NCBI GenBank assembly: GCA_038046645.1
Contig: JBBSVU010000001.1
Span: 62,848 to 82,257 of the forward strand
DNA length: 19,410 nt
Reading direction: 5' to 3'
Source of the DNA: an archaeon
Lineage (GTDB): Archaea; Iainarchaeota; Iainarchaeia; Iainarchaeales; 0-14-0-20-34-12
The position numbers were made by a program, and so were the translations under genes. The stretch's first letter is position 1. Every line of letters starts with the position of its first letter. Below, one piece after another: positions 8,042-17,020 of this stretch. The notes below the pieces were generated by a model, which saw nothing but the letters and a program-made list of their open reading frames with translations, ran no database searches and was not told the origin of the DNA.

Positions 8042-8059
8042 GCCCTCATAGTATAATGG
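8042..8059 (+). pseudogene. 5' remnant of a tRNA gene (acceptor strand plus part of the D arm)
   Basis: GCCCTCA TA GTAT AATGG fits tRNA positions 1-19 (U8, A9, G10, A14, G18G19); GCCCTCA pairs with TGGGGGC at 9382-9388. Confidence 0.5.
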
Positions 8060-8099
8060 GTGGAAATGAATATAATAGGTTACTACTAATTAACTCATA

Positions 8100-9296
8100 A
8101 TGACTAGAATATCCTTAGATAAAAAAAATAGAGAGAAGCTATTCAAATTACTAAAAAAACAATATGGCACTCTATCATACTTCAAATTAGCTAAAAAGAT
8201 AGGGGTGCCTTACAAAAGCTTACAAAACTGGATCTATGGGGAACGCCTAATCCCTACAGGAATAATCCCAAACAAGTTACTAAATAAAATAAAAATTGAG
8301 CAGATAAGGGAAAATAATTGGGGGCAAATAAAGGGGGGGCTTATTGGAGGCAAAATTGCCATTAAAAAACTTTTAAGCAAATATTCTAAAAAAGAGTTAA
8401 TTAAATGGAGAAAAAATATTGGCAAGAAAGGTGCAGCAAAAGCAAATAAAACACTTAAAAAATTAAAACATAAAAACCCCGATTATTTTTATATACTGCT
8501 AAGAAAAAAGAAATTTGCAAAAAATTTTCAAAAATTGAGTAAAAAGAAATTGCAAAAAAAGGAGATAATGCTAGACACCAAAAGCATACCTTACAGCCCT
8601 ATTGATATTAAAAAAGAGATTAGATTGCCCACTAAATTAACTCCTGAATTGGCAGAGATTATTGGGGCACATACTGGAGATGGGACACTTTCAACAAAAA
8701 GATATTATTTTTCAATAAGAACTAGCATATTTGAAGAGGAATATTTCACAAAACACGTTTTTCCCCTATATAAACGAACGTTTAACATTAATTTAAAATT
8801 ACTAAAAAGACCACCTATCTGCGGTTTTGAAACAAGTTCAAAAGCAATACATTATTTTAAAAATCAGATATTTGGTCTGCCCATAGGCACCAAAACGCAC
8901 AAAATAGGAGTATCTCCATTAATCTCAGAAAGTAATGATAAAAAAATAATGGGTGCTTTTTTGAGAGGAGTGTTTGACACAGATGGTTGTGTTTATTTCT
9001 CCAAACATCAAACATATCCAGTATTAAGCATTACTGTCAAATCAAAAAAAGCTATAAAAGGGATGGGATTGCTACTTAAAAAACTAGGATATGATCCACA
9101 TATAAACCTTAAGAGTTATACTGTTTATTTAAATGGGGTACTGAAATTCAAGAAATGGCTTGATGAAATTGGAACAAAAAACCCAAAACATCAAAAAAGA
9201 ATAAATAAAATAAAGGAAAAACTTCCTTGGGCGGAGATCGAAAAAACCTTAAATGAAATTTCAAATATTCAAGCAACCGATGGTTCCGTGGTGTAA
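8100..9296 (+). CDS. Free-standing double-motif LAGLIDADG (DOD/intein-type) endonuclease with N-terminal HTH; stop codon inside tRNA-Arg
   Basis: Motifs ELAEIIGAHTGDG and AFLRGVFDTDG; HTH-like YFKLAKKIGVPYKSLQNWIYG; no intein splicing termini. Confidence 0.9.
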   Translation: MTRISLDKKNREKLFKLLKKQYGTLSYFKLAKKIGVPYKSLQNWIYGERLIPTGIIPNKLLNKIKIEQIRENNWGQIKGGLIGGKIAIKKLLSKYSKKELIKWRKNIGKKGAAKANKTLKKLKHKNPDYFYILLRKKKFAKNFQKLSKKKLQKKEIMLDTKSIPYSPIDIKKEIRLPTKLTPELAEIIGAHTGDGTLSTKRYYFSIRTSIFEEEYFTKHVFPLYKRTFNINLKLLKRPPICGFETSSKAIHYFKNQIFGLPIGTKTHKIGVSPLISESNDKKIMGAFLRGVFDTDGCVYFSKHQTYPVLSITVKSKKAIKGMGLLLKKLGYDPHINLKSYTVYLNGVLKFKKWLDEIGTKNPKHQKRINKIKEKLPWAEIEKTLNEISNIQATDGSVV

Positions 9297-9353
9297 TGGA
9301 AAACATAGTGGCCTGCGGAGCTACTGACTCGGGTTCGAATCCCGACGGAACCA
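9282..9353 (+). tRNA. tRNA-Arg(GCG)
   Basis: GGTTCCG/CGGAACC acceptor, GTGGC-CTGCGGA-GCTAC anticodon arm, TCGGG-TTCGAAT-CCCGA T arm. Confidence 0.96.
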
Positions 9354-9370
9354 ATATGTAATTAAGTAAG

Positions 9371-9389
9371 TCAGATCCCAGTGGGGGCA
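9371..9389 (+). pseudogene. 3' remnant of a tRNA gene (T loop, T stem 3' strand, acceptor 3' strand, discriminator)
   Basis: TCAGAT CCCAG TGGGGGC A has tRNA 3'-end spacing; it matches no intact tRNA here but pairs with 8042-8048. Confidence 0.55.
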
Positions 9390-9448
9390 AGCCCCTTTCT
9401 TTTCTTGCGAAGAAAAGAAAGGCCCTTGGGTTCAAAGAAAAGAAACTA
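9390..9448 (+). repeat. Pyrimidine/purine hairpin element, copy A
   Basis: CCTTTCTTTTCTT-GCG-AAGAAAAGAAAGG (9394-9422) then GGTTCAAAGAAAAGAA; closely matches 9786-9843. Confidence 0.85.
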
Positions 9449-9493
9449 TTTAATTAGCTTTTAGTCAAGTATGTTATACTAAAGATCAGTTAA

Positions 9494-9577
9494 GCACGGG
9501 TTGGAGAGTGGCCTAATCCATCGGCTTTAGGGGCCGACGCCTTAGTGGCTTCGCAGGTTCGAATCCTGTCCCGTGCA
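9494..9577 (+). tRNA. tRNA-Leu(TAG)
   Basis: GCACGGG/CCCGTGC acceptor, TCGGC-TTTAGGG-GCCGA anticodon arm, long variable arm, TTCGAAT T loop. Confidence 0.96.
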
Positions 9578-9785
9578 AAACCATTGCGAAGCAATGGTTG
9601 GGCAGTATGTTAATATCAAGAAAATATTATTCTTTGATAAAACTTTCTTTTTAAGAAAGTTTTGAATCCTGTCCCGTGCACTGCCAACCGAAGGTTGGCA
9701 CTGAACAGCATAAGTAATATTATGCAAAATATTATTCTTTGATAAAACTTTCTTTCTAAGAAAGTTTTGAAGACTGTCCCGTGCA
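9578..9785 (+). repeat. Two tandem ~104-bp units, each ending in a copy of the tRNA-Leu 3' end
   Basis: GAATCCTGTCCCGTGCA (9561-9577) repeats at 9664-9680 (17/17) and 9769-9785 (15/17); 9621-9680 vs 9726-9785 match 57/60. Confidence 0.9.
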
Positions 9786-9843
9786 AACCCCTTTCTTTTC
9801 TTAGAAAGAAAAGAAAGGCCTTTTGGTTCAAAGAAAAGAACTA
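9786..9843 (+). repeat. Pyrimidine/purine hairpin element, copy B
   Basis: CCTTTCTTTTCTT-AGA-AAGAAAAGAAAGG (9790-9818) then GGTTCAAAGAAAAGAA. Confidence 0.85.
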
Positions 9844-9881
9844 ACTAAAAAGAATAATTTAAAGAAAACTGATAAGATAAC

Positions 9882-10766
9882 CTAGCTTTTTTCCTTTGAA
9901 ATAGTAATAATTACCACTCCAACTAATGCAAGTAAAATACCTAAGTATTGCACCAGAGCAAGAACCTCTGCAAATAAAATAAAGGAACCTATTGCAGTTA
10001 TTATTGGTGCAAATACCTCAATTAACGAACCAAGTATGGCTTTTATCCTTTTTAATGATTCATAATAAAACAGGTACGGCACTAATGTGCCTGTTACAAC
10101 AATGCCAAACAAAAGCAGGAAATCATTAAAACTTATTTGGAATAGCTCAGTGACATTTGAGAATAACAATAAAGGAATCAGAAAAATCGTCCCTGAAATA
10201 ATCCTTACTGTGAGTATGGTCAATGAAGATAAAGATTTTGTCAAATAACGGCCTAAAACAGTGCAAATAGCAAAACTAAAACAAGAAAATAAAGACAAAA
10301 GTATTCCTTGCACAGTTATATTAAAATCAGCATTCCCTAGGCCCATCATCAAGATAGCAATTAGGATTAGGCAAGTGGCAAATAACTCTTTTTTATTAAT
10401 GGTTTCCTTTAGGAAAATCCAGCCCAAAAGCAAAACAAAGATAGGCTGCATCTGCACTATTGTAGTAGACAGGGTAGGGCCAATAAATCCAATTGCATAA
10501 ATAAAAGACAGCCAACCCAAAATTATCCCAAAAAATCCTACTGAAATAGCCAGCAACTTTACCTTAGGTGAAACTTTAGAAAATTCACTAACCTTTTTAG
10601 CATGAACAAATAGGGGAAGAATAAACAAAAAAGACATTAGATAAACAGCAAAGGATAAGGTAATTGGGGAAAATTTGTGGGATAAAAATTTTAAGATTAA
10701 GGAATATGATCCAAAGCCAAGGCTTGCTAATAGCATTAGCAGTATTCCCTTAGTCCTTTCATCCAT
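9882..10766 (-). CDS. EamA/DMT family transporter
   Basis: 294 aa, about 10 TM helices in two repeats; motifs QPIFVLLLGWIFLKE and PIITAIGSFILFAE. Confidence 0.92.
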   Translation of the reverse strand: MDERTKGILLMLLASLGFGSYSLILKFLSHKFSPITLSFAVYLMSFLFILPLFVHAKKVSEFSKVSPKVKLLAISVGFFGIILGWLSFIYAIGFIGPTLSTTIVQMQPIFVLLLGWIFLKETINKKELFATCLILIAILMMGLGNADFNITVQGILLSLFSCFSFAICTVLGRYLTKSLSSLTILTVRIISGTIFLIPLLLFSNVTELFQISFNDFLLLFGIVVTGTLVPYLFYYESLKRIKAILGSLIEVFAPIITAIGSFILFAEVLALVQYLGILLALVGVVIITISKEKS

Positions 10767-10900
10767 AGTAACTTCATCAGCAAAGAGATTAATATGACTT
10801 TCCTGCTTGTAAAATAGCAGGGGCTATGCACAAACCAAATACCCCTAAAAATCGACAATCAAGAAGTTATTAAAAAGTTATGAGATAGATAATAATTAAG

Positions 10901-10964
10901 ATTCTCTTTTCTTTTACAAACCTATTTTTTCTTTTCTCTTAGAAAGAGAAAAGAAAAAACGGTT
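10901..10964 (-). repeat. Pyrimidine/purine hairpin element, copy C, directly upstream of tRNA-Pro
   Basis: 16-bp stem 10925-10940/10944-10959 with 3-nt loop and a distal TTCTCTTTTCTTTT tract. Confidence 0.75.
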
Positions 10965-11037
10965 GGGGAGATAGTATAGCCTGGCAGTACTTAACCTTGG
11001 GGTGGTTAAAACCTGGGTCCGAATCCCAGTCTTCCCA
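10965..11037 (+). tRNA. tRNA-Pro(GGG) with atypical T loop TCCGAAT
   Basis: GGGGAGA/TCTTCCC acceptor, TAACC-TTGGGGT-GGTTA anticodon arm, CTGGG/CCCAG T stem. Confidence 0.92.
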
Positions 11038-11174
11038 AACCTTTTCTCATTAAGAAAATAAAATAAGCATGCAATAAAAAAGTCATTAATTTACCATTAG
11101 TCCATATTGCACAATTCTTGCTTCAAATAGGTTTTTAAATATTAGTGGCAAATATTCTGCATAGGTGATCAAAA

Positions 11175-11312
11175 ATGGTATTCGATCTTATGTACGGTTG
11201 CGGTGCTTGCGGAGACGACGATGATTTTGACTCTGATGAAGACTTTGAGGATGAAGAGGAAGAAGAAGATAGTGATGAGGACTTTGAAGCAGAAGAAGGG
11301 GAAAATTACTAA
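11175..11312 (+). CDS. Unannotated 45-aa hyperacidic protein with a CxxC motif
   Basis: MVFDLMYGCGACGDDDDFDSDEDFEDEEEEEDSDEDFEAEEGENY; AGGTGAT at 11163-11169, TATA-like TTTTAAAT at 11133-11140, T-rich tract after the stop. Confidence 0.75.
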   Translation: MVFDLMYGCGACGDDDDFDSDEDFEDEEEEEDSDEDFEAEEGENY

Positions 11313-11396
11313 CTTTTAACATTCTAATTCCTTTTTATTTTTTTCTTATTCTTATTTTTCATATCCCCCATTATTTTTATAATTTGAACTCAGCAT

Positions 11397-11469
11397 GGCT
11401 GCGGTAGTACAATGGCTAGTATCTAGGGCTGTGGACCCTTGGAACCGAGTTCGATTCTCGGCCGCGGCC
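11397..11469 (+). tRNA. tRNA-His(GTG) with genomically encoded G-1
   Basis: G-GCTGCGG/CCGCGGC-C acceptor with C73, TAGGG-CTGTGGA-CCCTT anticodon arm, TTCGATT T loop. Confidence 0.95.
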
Positions 11470-11476
11470 TTTCTAC

Positions 11477-12088
11477 TTAGGCTGTAGAAGAAGTTCTTTC
11501 CTCATCAGCAGGCTTAGCAGATAATGCCCTTCTTGCAGCTGCTGCATTCAATAATAATGCCCTGTTGTATCTATGCCTGCGCCGCAACAATCTCTTATCA
11601 TGCACCCCAACTTCCCTTTTATGCTTCCTTGCCTTAGCCCTTAATTCGTTAAATTCTTTCTCATAATCTGAAATCATTTCCTCAAAACCATGTGCTTCCC
11701 TTAGCAATTGCTTCTTCCTGCTTTGAAGACCTGATATTTTATATGCAATGCTGGCTTTAGCTATGGGTTTAAATCTTACTGCTGCCAAATCCAAACGTTG
11801 TTGCTGCAAAGCTACTAATTTTCTATTTACTGAAGCAAGCTCGCTCTTTATTCTTGAATAAACATCATAGACTGAAGCAACTCTTGATTTTACCTTATCA
11901 GTACCTTGTTCTTGCATCAGTCTTTCCAATTCTCCTTGATAGTGCACTTTCTGCCATTTATGGTAGCTTCTCCAGGTTTTATCCCAAACGTTAGCGGAAA
12001 CCTTTGCGGTTTTTCTTGCAGCTTCAGCTATTTTTTTAGCACTAATTGAAACTACTTTTTTAAACAATGGTTTAAGAGGCCTTCTCAT
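11477..12088 (-). CDS. Highly basic coiled-coil orphan protein; likely start ATG 12088 (MRRPLKP)
   Basis: K/R-rich and helical; the 12088 start removes the overlap with hisS and lies about 25 nt from the TATA-like TTTAAA near 12114-12119. Confidence 0.7.
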   Translation of the reverse strand: MRRPLKPLFKKVVSISAKKIAEAARKTAKVSANVWDKTWRSYHKWQKVHYQGELERLMQEQGTDKVKSRVASVYDVYSRIKSELASVNRKLVALQQQRLDLAAVRFKPIAKASIAYKISGLQSRKKQLLREAHGFEEMISDYEKEFNELRAKARKHKREVGVHDKRLLRRRHRYNRALLLNAAAARRALSAKPADEERTSSTA

Positions 12089-12144
12089 AAATAAAATGGA
12101 CAGAAAAACTGTTTTTAAACCTAAATGAAACCTATTATATGTGT

Positions 12145-13416
12145 ATGTTGCAGACAATACGCGGAATGCGTGATTTAGAACCTCAGTTGGCAAGGAAGAA
12201 AAACTTCGTATTAGGCATATGCAAATCTGTTTTTGAGAAATATGGATTTAAGCCAATAGAAACACCGGCAGTAGAATATTTGGAATTATTGACAAAAAAG
12301 GGTTCTGCAGGTGCAGAAATTGAAAAAGAAATTTATGCTTTTGAAGACAAATCCAACAGAAAATTAGGGTTAAGGTTTGACTTAACTGTTCCATTGGCAA
12401 GATATGTTGCTTCAAATCCAACGTTAAGATTGCCATTTAAAAGATATCAAATTGGTTCTGTGTACAGGTATGACAGGCCGCAAGAGAAAAGATACAGGGA
12501 ATTTACCCAGGCAGATATTGATATAGTTGGAACAGAGTCAATCCTTGCGGAATTTGAGATTATTGCTGTTGTGATTGAAACATGCCAAAAAATCGGTTTG
12601 AAGAATTTTTATGTTAAAATAAACTCAAGAAAATTGCTTGAAGAAATTGCAAAATGCTGCAACATCCCAAATGACAAAATAAAGGAATGCTTCAGGTGCA
12701 TTGACAAATTAGATAAAATTGGCTGGGAAGGGGTTCAGAAAGAATTGCAAGCATATGGTTTGGATACAAAAATCTGCGAGATTGTAAAAAATAATAATTT
12801 TGAAAGTACAATAAAAATGATTGAGAAGGGCAAGGGCAATTCTGAATGCATAAAAGAACTGAAAGAACTGTTTGAATTATTGAAAAAATTCTCTCTTGAC
12901 AAATATGTGAAATTAGATTTGAGTTTAGCGCGCGGATTGGAATATTATACTGGCATAGTTTTTGAAATTGTTGCTGACGGCCCAAGTATAGGAGGAGGGG
13001 GGAGATATGATAAATTAATTGGCACTTATGGCAGCAAGGATGTTCCTGCTGTCGGCATTTCCTTTGGAATTGACCGTGTCATAGACAATATGCAAAAAGA
13101 CTTTGGAACAGAATCAAAAATTTTTATTATCCCTGCAAATGAAAATGTGAGAATTCAGTCATTAGAATTTGTGCAGGAATTGAGGGAAAATAATATTGCG
13201 AGCGAAATTGATTTAATGGATAGGAATATTTCAAAGAATCTGGATTATGCAAATAAGGAAGGCATTCCTTTTGTGATAGTATTGGGGGATAAAGAACTGA
13301 AAGAAAAGAAGTTTTCCCTGAAGGATATGAAAACAGGAAAAGAAACTCTGTTGAAATTGGATGAAATTGGAAAATTGAAAGAGATTATTGAAAAATATAG
13401 TAAAGGATATAAATAG
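12145..13416 (+). CDS. hisS: Histidyl-tRNA synthetase
   Basis: RGMRD, LRFDLTVPLAR, YRYDRPQEKRYREFTQ, RGLEYYTG, GGGRYD and a C-terminal anticodon-binding domain. Confidence 0.97.
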   Translation: MLQTIRGMRDLEPQLARKKNFVLGICKSVFEKYGFKPIETPAVEYLELLTKKGSAGAEIEKEIYAFEDKSNRKLGLRFDLTVPLARYVASNPTLRLPFKRYQIGSVYRYDRPQEKRYREFTQADIDIVGTESILAEFEIIAVVIETCQKIGLKNFYVKINSRKLLEEIAKCCNIPNDKIKECFRCIDKLDKIGWEGVQKELQAYGLDTKICEIVKNNNFESTIKMIEKGKGNSECIKELKELFELLKKFSLDKYVKLDLSLARGLEYYTGIVFEIVADGPSIGGGGRYDKLIGTYGSKDVPAVGISFGIDRVIDNMQKDFGTESKIFIIPANENVRIQSLEFVQELRENNIASEIDLMDRNISKNLDYANKEGIPFVIVLGDKELKEKKFSLKDMKTGKETLLKLDEIGKLKEIIEKYSKGYK

Positions 13417-13532
13417 GGAAACATAATTGGTCCTTTACTGCCTAGCAAAAGATAATAAACAATCTCAAAATTAAATTCTTTTGCTATAGATACTATTAAA
13501 ATTCTTGTTTTGTGAGAATATATAGAACTAAT

Positions 13533-13619
13533 GCCCTATTAGCGCAGTGGTTAGCGCACGTGCTTGGTATCTATTGAACAAATAGCACGGGGTCCCGGGT
13601 TCAATTCCCGGATAGGGCT
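13533..13619 (+). tRNA. tRNA-Thr(GGT) with a 14-nt intron at 37/38 (13570-13583)
   Basis: GCCCTAT/ATAGGGC acceptor; CGTGC-TTGGTA[TCTATTGAACAAAT]A-GCACG; CCGGG-TTCAATT-CCCGG. Confidence 0.93.
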
Positions 13620-14602
13620 CTAACTTTAGCTAAATTTCTTTCATTAGAAAAACCTATTAGCTGCATCCATTTTTCTAATTGTGCTAGTCCATAAACTTCA
13701 ATACAATAGCTGCACCTTTTAACATTCTCATGAGTATACAAACTAAATTCCTTTGACAAAATTTCTTTAAGTTGTAAATATAAGTTCTTGCTTACTGTCT
13801 GTAAAGTAATCCGCGGATAACATCCTTTATATGTTGGTCTTTCATCCAGATAGACACAACCATCAGTATCAAAAATTCCCCTAATTGTTGCAAAAATAAA
13901 TTTTTTATCAGATGCGAGTATCACATCTGGAATTTTTATTGTAAAAGACTTTTTACCAACCGGAAAATCAAATTTATTAATTAAGAAATGAAATAATGGC
14001 TTAGAATGAAATCTAACCCTCACAACATTACCTAAAGGTACTTCGATTATTTTTCCTTTAAGAATGCTTATGCTATGTTCAAGGTTGTTAGTTAAATAAT
14101 TAATATATTGTTTGTCTTTTTTTAGATTACCAACTACTTCAATAAGATACCTATTTTCATATTTCCCTATAAATCCATCTCCAATTAAAGCACCAATAAA
14201 TTCACAAATAATCTCTGACAAAGGCATATTTATGCGTGAGAAATGATGATACCTTCTCCAATTGCTTTTTATTGCCTTCATTCTTCCCTTCTCAAATATT
14301 TCGGGGTACTGTTTGGAAGTAATTTTCCCACCCAATTTAGCTCCCCAATTTGCTTCTTTTGTTGAAATATTTTGCAGAAAATACTGTTGCTTTGATTTTT
14401 CTAAAGCAGAATTAAGTTCAGCAAACAAATCACAGGGCAATGTGTTAATGCCATATTGATATCTTTGAAAAACACTTCGGTAAATGCCTAACGTATTCGC
14501 TAAATCTCTCCAAGTTTTAGCAGCATAAGAACTTCTTATGTCTTGGAAAAAATCTTCCCTTATTTTGTCATCTTTAAAATAAACTCTCGTATTTTTATCC
14601 AT
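13601..14602 (-). CDS. Free-standing double-motif LAGLIDADG endonuclease with N-terminal HTH; stop codon antisense within the tRNA-Thr T loop
   Basis: Motifs ICEFIGALIGDG and ATIRGIFDTDG; HTH-like WRDLANTLGIYRSVFQRYQYG; NWGxxxGG linker shared with 8100-9296. Confidence 0.9.
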   Translation of the reverse strand: MDKNTRVYFKDDKIREDFFQDIRSSYAAKTWRDLANTLGIYRSVFQRYQYGINTLPCDLFAELNSALEKSKQQYFLQNISTKEANWGAKLGGKITSKQYPEIFEKGRMKAIKSNWRRYHHFSRINMPLSEIICEFIGALIGDGFIGKYENRYLIEVVGNLKKDKQYINYLTNNLEHSISILKGKIIEVPLGNVVRVRFHSKPLFHFLINKFDFPVGKKSFTIKIPDVILASDKKFIFATIRGIFDTDGCVYLDERPTYKGCYPRITLQTVSKNLYLQLKEILSKEFSLYTHENVKRCSYCIEVYGLAQLEKWMQLIGFSNERNLAKVRALSGN

Positions 14603-14843
14603 ATAACCAACTTACCATAAACTAATTACTCTAAGAATCAGTAATTTCTCAAATAACCTCTTTTCGGAAGAGCAGATTTCCCCTGAAAAATATCTTTTTA
14701 TAGATACGCAAATAGGGCATGGCTACTTCATTTTTGTCTTATTGTGGAACTTCAGTGAAACAAAAGAAGCAAAAGGACTCAGCATTTAGCGTAAAGCAAC
14801 CCTTAAAAATACTTAAATTTTAATAATAACATAGTGAATTGAA

Positions 14844-15533
14844 ATGTCCTTTGAAAAGCTTGATGATAGATTGGTTGAATTGCTTATTGATAAATACATT
14901 AAGCATAATGATGTTGTTGCATTTGGTTCGAGCATCCATTCAGAACGCTTTGTAAAGAAAATGGCCTTGAAAGCTGAAACTGAAAATTTGCATATTAAGA
15001 TAGTGCCAACCTCTGCAAGAATTGCAGAAATTGCACATTCTTTAGGATTAAATATTGTTTCAATAAATGATGCTGAAATAGATATTTCAATTGAATTTGC
15101 TGAAATTATCGATAATGACTTTAATTTTGTAAAAAGAGACACTTTATCATTAGTAAGGGATAAAATGATAGCACAAAGTGCTGCAAAATTAATAGCAATT
15201 TCTCAAAAGGAGAACTTTGTAAAGCATTTATATGGCATTGTGCCATTTGAAATAACCCAATTTGGCTGGAAAAGGACACTTGCGCAGTTAGAACAATTTG
15301 GTGCAAGCAGCTTGAGAAAACAGGACAACAAAGCAAGCATTACTGAAAGCGGAAATTATTTGGCTGATGTTGATATAAGGGTGAAATTCTTGCCGGAAGA
15401 TATTGATTATGCAGCAAAGAATATTCCTGGTGTTTTAGAAACCGGCTTATTTATTGGGTGTGCAGATAAAGCATTGCTTTATTCTGCAAAAGGGATTGAG
15501 GTTAAAGGATTAATGCACGATAAAATAAAATAG
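14844..15533 (+). CDS. rpiA: Ribose-5-phosphate isomerase A-like protein with degenerate active-site motifs
   Basis: VPTS, VPFEI, ITESGNYLAD and IPGVLETGLF fit RpiA; GTGST, DGAD and KGGG are not conserved. Confidence 0.75.
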   Translation: MSFEKLDDRLVELLIDKYIKHNDVVAFGSSIHSERFVKKMALKAETENLHIKIVPTSARIAEIAHSLGLNIVSINDAEIDISIEFAEIIDNDFNFVKRDTLSLVRDKMIAQSAAKLIAISQKENFVKHLYGIVPFEITQFGWKRTLAQLEQFGASSLRKQDNKASITESGNYLADVDIRVKFLPEDIDYAAKNIPGVLETGLFIGCADKALLYSAKGIEVKGLMHDKIK

Positions 15534-15537
15534 CAAA

Positions 15538-15987
15538 CTAACTTTCTCTGATTATTTCATCAATAATATCCCTAAGTCTGTTGATTAGGTGATTCCTAAA
15601 TATACTACCTTTCGCTTCTGCCCTTGTTTCTAAGGCAGTTTGCAAAGCCTGCTTTAATGCCGGCAAAGCTTTTATTCCTGCTAGCTGTTGCAATCCACAA
15701 GCTGCACACAGCTTTACATGATCATCTGCATCAGTGGCTAATGACTTTTTCAATGCTGGTATGGATTGAACACTGTTTAAATCAACTAAGTTTAAAGCCG
15801 CTGAACTTCTTTTCCTGGGATTTGGATCAGCAATTAATGTTCTTTCCGCAGCCTCAACACTCCCCATAAGATTTCTTGCTAAAACTGCCTTTTTTCTTAA
15901 TTTCTTAAATACGCGCTTTGCGTCAAGCAAATTTCCCATAGGCTTAACTAAACGGCTTGTTCTTGATGTTGGTAGTTTTCGCGGCAT
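15538..15987 (-). CDS. HEAT/PBS-lyase repeat protein with basic N-terminus
   Basis: DPNPRKRSSAALNL...SIPALKKSLATDADDHVKLCAACGL...ALPALKQAL. Confidence 0.8.
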   Translation of the reverse strand: MPRKLPTSRTSRLVKPMGNLLDAKRVFKKLRKKAVLARNLMGSVEAAERTLIADPNPRKRSSAALNLVDLNSVQSIPALKKSLATDADDHVKLCAACGLQQLAGIKALPALKQALQTALETRAEAKGSIFRNHLINRLRDIIDEIIRES

Positions 15988-16131
15988 TTTATCACAATAA
16001 TAAATGGCAAATAGGAAATTTAAATGCTTTTATAAAAAACAAAATAATAACTATGCTAATTCAACGGAAATCTACTCTCTCTCCTCTTGTTTATATACAA
16101 AACAAGCCTGCTTAAGTAGGGATAATTAAAA

Positions 16132-16926
16132 ATGAGATATCTAAAACCTAAATGCTTTAACTATGTCAATACAAATATTCAGGCACTTCCCAAAGATAGT
16201 TTACTATTTAATGCTGAACTAAGGCTCATGCCAAATAAAAGAACAAGAACAGTACGATTCTATTCGACTCCCCTAAACAAAAAAATACGTAAAAGAGCTA
16301 TTTACATTAGCATAAAATTTAATAAAAAACAAAACATATTTTACCTAAAACCAATAATTAAAGGTAAGAACCGGTTGTATGCCTTACGTAAAGATACTGT
16401 TGGATTTGCAGCAACCGATATGACCAAAAAAATAAAACTTAAGTCTGGAAAAACACGAAAGTGCGCAGTTTTAATAAAGCCCACTGATTTTGGATTTAAA
16501 TTATCCGAACACATAATTGACAAAGATGCCTCTAAGCTATATAAAGAATTAATTAAATTAAGTTTTTTGAATTACCCTATAAAAGTGACACCTAACAATC
16601 ACTGTGGTGACCTACTTGTTTCAAAAAAAGGAAAAATATATTGTATCCATATTAGTGTTGCCTGTCCACATACTTCTAATAGAAAAATAAGGTCAATTAA
16701 CCGACACCGCTTATTTGGGAAAATAATTTATCAAGCAATGGAAGCCACAAAGAACCTTAAGTGTAAAAACATTGCAATAATTAATAAAGAATTAGTGGAT
16801 ACCAACACATTCAATGAGACTACTGTTAATTTTCTAAAAAAACATGTAGATTTATTGATATTCACAGATTTTTCACATAATTGGGAAAGAAAAGTAGCTA
16901 ATATAATTGCCGAGGGCGTGAATTGA
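16132..16926 (+). CDS. Basic orphan with possible C-terminal PD-(D/E)XK nuclease-like fold; stop codon antisense within the tRNA-Met T loop (alternative start 16228)
   Basis: K/R-rich; HCGDLLVSKKGKIYCIHIS resembles the D-hhh...h-E-x-K core, but with H-x-S in place of E-x-K. Confidence 0.6.
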   Translation: MRYLKPKCFNYVNTNIQALPKDSLLFNAELRLMPNKRTRTVRFYSTPLNKKIRKRAIYISIKFNKKQNIFYLKPIIKGKNRLYALRKDTVGFAATDMTKKIKLKSGKTRKCAVLIKPTDFGFKLSEHIIDKDASKLYKELIKLSFLNYPIKVTPNNHCGDLLVSKKGKIYCIHISVACPHTSNRKIRSINRHRLFGKIIYQAMEATKNLKCKNIAIINKELVDTNTFNETTVNFLKKHVDLLIFTDFSHNWERKVANIIAEGVN

Positions 16927-17020
16927 ACACGCGATCTTTCGATTGCCCCCTAGTTAAAGGTTATGAGTAACGTCGTCTTGAAAAGACTCGAACGCTCTAA
17001 CCGGACTGAGCTACCCCGGC
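16908..17020 (-). tRNA. Elongator tRNA-Met(CAT) with two introns: 30/31 (16969-16988) and 37/38 (16944-16961)
   Basis: GCCGGGG TA GCTC AGTCCGGTTA GAGC G TTCG[20 nt]A CTCATA[18 nt]A TCGAA AGATC GCGTG TTCAATT CACGC CCTCGGC A; removing both introns gives a clean cloverleaf. Confidence 0.92.

Follow-up and report, generated by a model that had tools for sequence, protein, structure and literature searches.

Free-standing LAGLIDADG genes docked on archaeal tRNA genes as candidate homing cassettes that carry a tRNA

We analysed a 19,410-nt stretch of DNA (the window) from the genome of a tiny groundwater archaeon (1.17 Mb, 35% G+C, 25 contigs, 89% complete), in which three protein genes end inside tRNA genes. 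Two of these, HEG1 and HEG2, encode proteins of the LAGLIDADG endonuclease type and are the main subject of this report. HEG1 (P0001, 398 aa; 8100-9296, plus strand) ends in ...GSVV and stops on a TAA at 9294-9296, 15 nt into a complete tRNA-Arg(GCG) gene at 9282-9353 on the same strand (tRNA-Arg'; Rfam 61.6 bits). HEG2 (P0002, 333 aa; 13601-14602, minus strand) is convergent with a tRNA-Thr(GGU) gene at 13533-13619 on the plus strand (tRNA-Thr'; Rfam 58.9 bits), which has a 14-nt intron at 13570-13583 (ARAGORN i(38,14)); its end, ...ALSGN and stop, extends 19 nt antisense within the 3' end of the tRNA. The third gene, P0003 (264 aa, a near-orphan; 16132-16926, plus strand), ends in ...AEGVN and likewise runs 19 nt antisense into a convergent tRNA-Met(CAU) gene at 16908-17020 on the minus strand (tRNA-Met'; Rfam 52.9 bits), in which two insertions of ~20 and ~18 nt flank the anticodon loop CTCATAA. 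The three ends and their stop codons lie where a preliminary description of this DNA, made from the letters alone, had placed them.

The window holds seven tRNA genes by Rfam and five by ARAGORN run without introns. Among the seven, both the T loop TTCAATT and introns are found only in tRNA-Thr' and tRNA-Met', as had also been pointed out. The two antisense overlaps are 19 nt long because the first antisense stop, the TGA in AATTGAA, falls there; read-through among relatives ranges from 3 to 91 nt, and a length of 19 nt is not special.

Such gene ends might arise by chance juxtaposition in a compact genome with short spacers, and 12 further ORFs of at least 200 aa do end within 50 nt of a tRNA gene without overlapping it, 11 of them outside the LAGLIDADG family. 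These neighbours were considered as cassettes and rejected, being ordinary genes (an HTH_10 regulator, a HerA-like ATPase, a membrane protein). Actual overlap is distributed differently. When the 698 non-overlapping ORFs of at least 200 aa in the whole genome were compared with the tRNA calls, the 3' ends of six overlapped a tRNA call: four LAGLIDADG genes, P0003, and one ORF that touches a doubtful intron-containing tRNA-SeC call by 1 nt. All five overlaps longer than 1 nt thus belong to LAGLIDADG paralogues or to P0003, which is far above chance.

HEG1 and HEG2 are paralogues of each other across both the nuclease core and the N-terminal region. They match Pfam LAGLIDADG_3 (PF14528) with E 8.1e-9 (36.1 bits) and E 1.8e-6 (28.6 bits), respectively, against a cut-off of 22.5 bits. 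In each, a single-chain LAGLIDADG endonuclease domain with two motifs follows an N-terminal helical domain; throughout the family this additional domain measures ~120 aa and is HTH-like. The motifs read IGDG and FDTDG, and the aspartate of motif 1 is present in 107 of 107 family members, the Asp/Glu of motif 2 in 106. An AF2 model was made for HEG2 only (pLDDT 93.1); searched with Foldseek, it matched 142 PDB chains at E ≤ 0.001, among them I-Tsp061I (2dch; E 3.5e-10, TM 0.76 by target) and chains of I-DmoI (E about 1e-8). These two archaeal enzymes, encoded in rRNA introns, share with the HEG proteins the fold, the active-site layout and two motifs with Asp. Unlike them, HEG1 and HEG2 are free-standing, possess the extra N-terminal domain, dock on tRNA genes and carry tRNA sequence. 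Both are predicted to be intact single-chain LAGLIDADG endonucleases, and they may cut DNA.

The association with tRNA genes extends to relatives in other genomes. Protein-database candidates include at least 219 relatives of P0002, and those that are named come from Diapherotrites, Micrarchaeota, Woese-, Pace- and Nanoarchaeota bins. Many C-termini of the family pass from a conserved IGFSNxRHLxKI directly to a peptide resembling antisense tRNA. We kept 80 loci from 384 relatives, on one-genome-per-species contigs, and combined ARAGORN and Rfam calls. A tRNA gene lies within 200 nt in 70 of these 80 loci. The nuclease gene is convergent on the 3' end of tRNA-Thr(GGU or UGU) in 25 (in three of which the tRNA sits wholly within the read-through tail), lies directly upstream of tRNA-Thr(GGU) and reads into it in 23, lies directly downstream of tRNA-Thr(CGU) in 21, and is arranged otherwise in one; ten loci are tRNA-free within 200 nt, two of these being cut by the contig end. 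In 26 of 30 P0001-like loci the gene's 3' end meets a tRNA that runs in the same direction, here Arg-GCG, Leu-CAG/GAG, His-GUG, Arg-UCG/UCU or Asn. In a tree of 107 members, the protein clades match tRNA type and geometry. The enrichment near tRNA genes that the preliminary description had proposed to look for among homologues is therefore present, and with the link recurring in both sets of foreign loci the probability of chance juxtaposition becomes negligible.

The HEG1 locus preserves both ends of an older tRNA gene. In a genome of the same genus (G001) the site is empty: the order is PolB-MetAP-tRNA-Arg-tRNA-Leu-tRNA-Pro, MetAP (91% identical to that of the window) is separated from tRNA-Arg by 31 nt, and there is no nuclease gene. 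Alignment with the intact G001 tRNA-Arg reveals, at 8042-8068 of the window (plus strand), a 5' stub that represents nt 1-27 of the tRNA-Arg(GCG) formerly resident there, preceded immediately by its old promoter region. A 3' stub at 9376-9389 (plus strand) corresponds to its last 14 nt (14/14 match to the G001 3' end), and identity to G001 runs on from there into the downstream flank. Between the stubs stand HEG1 and the complete tRNA-Arg', a replacement carried with the gene; the middle of the resident tRNA (about nt 28-58) is lost. The replacement shares 54% identity with the G001 allele but 70-75% with tRNA-Arg genes that lie next to a nuclease gene in another family; for comparison, the adjacent tRNA-Leu(UAG) does not differ between the window genome and G001 (100% identity). 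Strong orthologues of P0001 (E < 1e-75) occur in 11 of 214 other genomes of the class.

A second empty site corresponds to HEG2. Metagenome contigs of a close relative (L177/L178; HisRS 90% and RpiA 89% identical to the window's) carry HisRS, an intron-less tRNA-Thr(GGU), 82 nt and rpiA, and no HEG2. Homology of the window to these contigs stops ~8 nt before tRNA-Thr and resumes 52 nt before rpiA, at TAAAGCAACC. The homology break delimits a cassette at 13525-14791, consisting of tRNA-Thr', the antisense HEG2 and its promoter region; these ~1.27 kb stand in place of ~130 bp of the close relative. With the intron excluded, tRNA-Thr' is 74% identical to the relative's intron-less allele. Set against neighbouring tRNAs that are 99-100% identical, the foreign tRNA-Arg' (54%) and tRNA-Thr' (74%) point to import of flanking DNA together with the gene. 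Comparison with relatives had been suggested as a way to find empty sites, and it yielded one for each LAGLIDADG gene of the window, MetAP/tRNA-Arg in G001 and tRNA-Thr/rpiA in L177/L178. As for the assembly itself, contigs of a different study (run X3) span MetAP-stub-HEG1, HEG1-tRNA-Arg'-stub and P0003-tRNA-Met-tRNA-Glu without differences.

A tblastn search of the genome returned five free-standing LAGLIDADG paralogues, HEG1 and HEG2 included, and three other matches; the latter fall within ORFs of 836 to 1276 aa, and we interpret them as inteins. The three further paralogues match LAGLIDADG_3 at 36.8 to 43.7 bits. All five end at a tRNA gene: Arg-GCG (15-nt overlap), Thr-GGU (19 nt, convergent), Ala-CGC (13 nt), Gly-CCC (a 19-nt gap) and Val-UAC, the last a convergent tRNA that ARAGORN called Gly and that is actually tRNA-Val(UAC) with two insertions. 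The nuclease gene is missing from G001 at four of these sites (Arg, Gly-CCC, Ala-CGC and Val-UAC), and, with the one in L177/L178, empty sites are available for all five nuclease genes of the genome. At Ala-CGC the insertion relative to G001 ends 17 nt before the tRNA-Ala, which has 1 mismatch. At Gly-CCC the differences from G001 concentrate in the half of the tRNA that adjoins the nuclease gene. The tRNA-Val is intron-less in the nuclease-free G001.

Fragments like those around HEG1 are frequent in the family. Outside the called tRNAs, tRNA fragments were detected in 35 of 151 windows flanking cassettes, compared with 2 of 132 control windows farther off. Inspection by eye gave the following picture for each type of locus. 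Downstream-type loci consist of an intact tRNA-Thr(CGU), the nuclease gene and, within ~10 nt of its stop, a 3' fragment starting from about nt 38-52. Upstream-type loci begin with a 5' fragment (nt 1-15), followed by a promoter, the nuclease gene and the intact tRNA, and at convergent loci an inverted 3' fragment lies ahead of the nuclease start. In three P0001-like loci (L137, L141 and L145) 3' fragments of 17, 51 and 19 nt, respectively, come after the intact tRNA. The longest stub seen is at L049 (2859-4005), where an intron-bearing tRNA-Thr(CGU) missed by ARAGORN and the nuclease gene precede a 3' fragment from ~nt 38.

An intact tRNA and a repeated tRNA fragment around an insert are also the classic footprint of an integrase, and the LAGLIDADG genes might accordingly be passengers in the leftovers of plasmid or virus integration at tRNA att sites. 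A locus of Caldiarchaeum subterraneum was interpreted in this manner: its tRNA-Thr(GGU) is described as a 5' fragment, a 1.87-kb insert with an 813-bp ORF, and an intact tRNA that gained an intron, tRNA-Thr is suggested as a specific target, and the event is ascribed to pNOB8-type integrase-driven integration, the ORF being a putative recombinase (Sugahara et al., 2012; PMC3293823). The same article places the unassigned ORF directly before tRNA-Thr(GGU) and a paralogue after tRNA-Thr(CGU) (PMC3293823); the ORF, 'b', has seven paralogues. Yet in the loci studied here, ~100 in number, only the LAGLIDADG gene lies regularly between tRNA and fragment, and the inserts measure ~1.0-1.3 kb. Three geometries occur at tRNA-Thr genes, each with its own nuclease clade. 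Loss of the middle of the resident tRNA-Arg together with entry of a whole foreign tRNA is not the product of a site-specific crossover. No integrase or transposase family appeared when 19 window ORFs were scanned against Pfam, in keeping with the preliminary description, and viral contigs of IMG/VR contain distant LAGLIDADG matches only (24-43% over partial regions), with no close member of the family. We therefore regard integrase leftovers as very unlikely.

The footprints are best accommodated, in our judgement, by homing. HEG1 and HEG2 probably belong to a family of LAGLIDADG homing endonucleases of DPANN-type archaea that is aimed at tRNA genes and moves as cassettes of nuclease and tRNA. 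According to this scheme, the enzyme would cut a nuclease-free copy of its cognate tRNA gene, and the break would be repaired from a genome bearing the cassette, one end invading via the shared tRNA sequence. Repair would then copy the nuclease gene and part or all of the donor tRNA; as the donor tRNA is copied in with the nuclease gene, a working tRNA would always be left. Where only the tRNA is shared by donor and recipient, the far end would be joined without homology, and for this reason the old tRNA end would remain as a stub starting near the break. If the donor tRNA differs too much, which is so for Arg, the cassette would be captured whole and the middle of the old tRNA lost. HEG1 would thus have arrived with a whole foreign tRNA-Arg, leaving both resident stubs behind, and HEG2 with a whole intron-bearing tRNA-Thr in a clean replacement of the resident gene. 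The proposal of endonuclease and tRNA cassettes that home into tRNA loci, which the preliminary description had made for all three genes, is upheld for the two LAGLIDADG genes by empty sites, stubs, foreign alleles and ~110 loci. Since tRNA-Arg', tRNA-Thr' and tRNA-Met' are the sole genes called for their anticodons in the genome, the host would depend on the cassette tRNA.

The overlaps themselves had been thought to lock the nuclease to an essential gene. This part of the proposal does not hold: the tails vary in length and sequence and are simply read-through. With no stop of their own at the junction, the nuclease frames continue until the tRNA supplies a first one, which accounts for the overlaps of 15 and 19 nt. 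Self-immunity conferred by introns or variant alleles had been suggested as well and fares unevenly. In this genus, the two informative convergent cassettes (Thr and Val) both come with an intron-bearing tRNA, the nuclease-free alleles being intron-less, and variant tRNA alleles exist for Arg and Thr. In the wider set, however, an intron was called in only 22 of 69 tRNAs next to a nuclease gene (convergent loci 7 of 25, upstream-type 6 of 23, downstream-type 9 of 21), with no enrichment evident, and one was also called in the nuclease-free tRNA-Arg of G005.

The distribution of the family fits a cycle of invasion, decay and loss, as is typical of homing endonucleases. Members at E ≤ 1e-20 are present in 46 of 215 genomes of the class. 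Strong P0002 orthologues were found in 5 of 40 order-level relatives, one with an in-frame TAG; a P0002 copy near rpiA in G002, of the same family, has 3 stops; and broken copies elsewhere include the P0001 orthologue of G150 (3 stops) and L073 (13 in-frame stops).

Several observations weigh against homing as the whole explanation. Between families, the nucleases show divergence (41-49%) comparable to that of MetAP and HisRS (45-48%), and HEG1 occupies the same MetAP/tRNA-Arg site in G011, a genome of a different family; long residence with many losses is therefore part of the story, and long vertical residence and repeated loss could explain much of the distribution. The tRNA-Ala is virtually the same with or without the nuclease, so that an immunity change borne by the tRNA is not evident there. 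Around the window's cassettes for Thr and Met, neither blastn-short with a tRNA panel nor inspection by eye revealed remnants of an earlier tRNA. Assembled contigs, the only material for this comparison, displayed no filled/empty polymorphism within one population: in those of four runs no joint skips a cassette, with the proviso that contigs drop rare variants, and the joints that were listed fall in repeats or stem from other organisms. A P0001-like clade of four (L154, L157, L160 and L165) has no tRNA nearby, and Rfam detects no RNA family there. Finally, the evidence for the repair route consists of footprints. That there have been at least some gains is nevertheless indicated by the foreign alleles and by the splitting of the resident tRNA-Arg.

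In the four loci of that clade, a conserved tail of ~40 aa is added at the C-terminus, and the ORF runs into the beginning of a conserved ~390-aa gene. The product of the latter begins MRSVSI..G.G...FGE and resembles a thiolase.

Housekeeping-like divergence and synteny of HEG1 in a second family would also be expected of domesticated, WhiA-like binders or regulators of the adjacent tRNA gene, which would have lost homing and whose adjacency would be kept by selection. Each clade keeps to one tRNA type over wide phylogenetic distances, one homologue is named 'WhiA' by one source, and the paralogue on contig C17 has a weak LAGLIDADG_WhiA match (E 0.0012, below the Pfam cut-off). WhiA itself, a bacterial transcription factor, is among the fold matches of P0002 (E 1.6e-7) and joins, as the HEG proteins do, an HTH to a LAGLIDADG scaffold. 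The HTH of WhiA lies at the C-terminus, and its catalytic residues have been lost. The HEG family differs on both counts, as its extra domain is N-terminal and its catalytic acidic residues are conserved (106-107 of 107 members). Moreover, the HEG family is too patchy in the class to serve a core function, and some copies contain in-frame stops. At identical sites the closest relatives have a working tRNA and no nuclease gene, and the genes themselves are flanked by foreign tRNA alleles and tRNA stubs. Domestication of this kind appears improbable to us.

P0003 presents a more ambiguous case. Its docking on tRNA-Met', stated in the preliminary description, is confirmed; its nature as a nuclease, proposed at the same time, finds only weak fold similarity in its favour. 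It matches no family in Pfam or NCBIfam, and it is not a degenerate LAGLIDADG protein as far as profiles can tell, that possibility having been rejected after hhalign against the family profile gave E 0.096 (probability 0.6%) and a profile-profile comparison a probability of 7%. Two close homologues exist in the protein database, and among 214 other genomes of the class there is one distant match, in G098. This homologue (395 aa) aligns with the entire P0003 and has an extra N-terminal region, which in turn aligns with the N-terminal domain of the LAGLIDADG family (hhalign E 3.6e-4, probability 37%).

Structural comparison of P0003 gave weak matches by all three methods used, with Can2, VC1899, an XisH-like chain, Bax1, Mus81, McrC, CoiA and DpnII at the top; these hint at a PD-(D/E)xK-like fold in the C-terminal half. 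The model has a pLDDT of 64.9. Its best Foldseek match is Bax1 at E 4.7e-3, none reaching E ≤ 0.001; VIA scored Can2 at Z 8.8, VC1899 at 8.4 and the XisH-like chain at 8.2, near a background of 7-8, unrelated Rossmann-like folds scoring 6-7; and the Atlas neighbours lie at TM 0.37-0.49. By eye, with no superposition of residues, a conserved GDL is present, and the strand expected to bear (D/E)xK reads CIHIS in P0003 and VIEIT in G098, so that the expected glutamate is His in P0003.

Two readings of P0003 were considered. It may be an unrelated lineage-specific gene that abuts tRNA-Met, neither a nuclease nor part of a mobile cassette, and we give this about an even chance. The absence of a family match and the weak fold evidence agree with it, as do the histidine in place of the glutamate, the lack of a tRNA near the G098 homologue, and the finding of neither an empty site nor a tRNA stub for P0003 among the relatives compared. 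Several observations stand against it. The docking geometry, 19 nt antisense, is the same as that of HEG2, and P0003 is one of the five genes overlapping a tRNA by more than 1 nt. In G005 and G011 the tRNA-Met is intron-less and follows rpiA on the strand of rpiA; relative to this backbone tRNA-Met' is inverted, interrupted by two insertions that those genes lack, and paired with P0003. The gene is found in only 1 of 214 other class genomes, the N-terminal domain of that homologue resembles the one of the LAGLIDADG family, and the best fold matches by the three methods are all PD-(D/E)xK nucleases. The other reading, to which we give somewhat less than an even chance, is that P0003 and the inverted two-intron tRNA-Met form a parallel cassette around another kind of protein, possibly of PD-(D/E)xK type.

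The same arrangement of P0003 and tRNA-Met is present in metagenome contigs of a close relative (L179). In L177/L178, the P0003 homologue comes 85 nt after rpiA, and a 149-aa HEAT-repeat gene that lies between rpiA and P0003 in the window (15538-15987, minus strand) is missing; it represents a separate small insertion in the window.

Among systems in print, the nearest mechanism is that of the mobile ORFs (mORFs) of fungal mitochondria, in Allomyces atp6 and in Glomus atp6, atp9, cox2 and nad3. There (PMC3630166, 2013), a LAGLIDADG or GIY-YIG ORF enters a gene together with a foreign gene end, the native end stays as a duplicate beyond the ORF, and the inserted gene end is far less like a near relative's gene than the native stub is. 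A foreign gene end coming in and a native stub left behind are likewise seen in the tRNA cassettes, which would be homing-endonuclease mobile ORFs aimed here at archaeal tRNA genes. Unlike mORFs, the cassettes target chromosomal tRNA genes of archaea, and the replacement can be a whole tRNA, with introns and in either orientation. The nearest observation is the Caldiarchaeum tRNA-Thr(GGU) locus, with its fragment, ORF and intron-gaining tRNA. The words LAGLIDADG and homing are absent from the main text of that article (Sugahara et al., 2012; PMC3293823), and the 2012 study may have seen such an element with its enzyme unrecognised. A phage analogue is SegB of T4, a free-standing endonuclease in a tRNA cluster that is reported to spread with flanking tRNA DNA by cutting nuclease-free genomes (Brok-Volchanskaya et al., 2008; PMC2330249). 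SegB is a GIY-YIG phage enzyme and not an archaeal LAGLIDADG protein, and overlap with the tRNA, tRNA stubs and a carried replacement tRNA do not figure in the description consulted (PMC2330249). A search of the literature on LAGLIDADG proteins and tRNA genes in archaea and DPANN returned no description of docked LAGLIDADG elements.

It has long been an open question why the tRNA genes of archaea so commonly turn out interrupted, split, permuted or replaced; integrating viruses and plasmids are the usual suspects. The window locus and the ~110 related loci point to a simpler agent, a selfish endonuclease cassette of ~1 kb that invades a tRNA gene and brings a tRNA or part of one, and its spread may help to explain the frequent replacement, breakage and interruption of these genes. 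It is possible, although we advance it with considerable reserve, that nuclease and tRNA cassettes are a general engine of tRNA gene turnover in archaea, with P0003 representing a second protein family so docked. If this is true, cassettes would swap tRNA alleles across lineages, import introns and make the host dependent on the cassette tRNA, an example of a parasite's copy of an essential gene becoming indispensable; the scattered tRNA halves would be raw material for split tRNA genes. The family would also contribute many natural single-chain LAGLIDADG enzymes that recognise specific sequences and have an additional DNA-binding domain. For tRNA-Arg and tRNA-Thr, filled alleles in the window can be paired with empty ones in its close relatives, which makes the question testable with defined substrates.

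An upstream motif, GGAAATCYRCTCT with TTTATAAA, precedes HEG2, P0003 and three paralogues. In the window it takes the form TTCAGGGGAAATCTACTCT(Y)C followed ~10 nt on by TTTATAAA, at 14662-14690 (minus strand) and 16062-16100 (plus strand). We considered it as a cassette boundary and rejected this: the genome has ~25 copies, several of them before IS605-type tnpB copies and others before other genes, as befits a general promoter-type element. These genes thus seem to have a promoter or regulator site in common.

A hairpin-rich repeat, which also fills the long tRNA introns of this genome, has a copy at 9395-9444 of the window, after the tRNA-Arg stub; further copies lie before the C17 nuclease gene (G000:C17 26669-26718) and after tRNA-Ala (G000:C24 12977-13111). 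Also after tRNA-Ala(CGC), 1.7 kb (L122 4101-5826; G000:C24 13000-14725) are missing from G001, which has 79 nt there; they encode a 338-aa protein with two AsnC-type winged HTH domains and a 145-aa ORF of no family. At the tRNA-Gly(CCC) site of G001 (G001:C6, the reverse complement of L126, about 372-1107 and 1183-1501) the genes differ on both sides: a small ORF of ~95 aa takes the place of the nuclease gene, and an extra ORF of ~735 nt follows the tRNA. As both flanks carry different genes, tRNA-Gly(CCC) is an exchange hotspot on both sides.

The remaining genes of the window with Pfam matches encode PolB, MetAP, an EamA transporter, HisRS, RpiA, the HEAT-repeat protein, a methyltransferase and UPP synthase. 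A 238-aa ORF of no family (hyp238; 11477-12193, minus strand) is convergent with tRNA-His and ends 7 nt from its 3' end; it is devoid of a nuclease signature.

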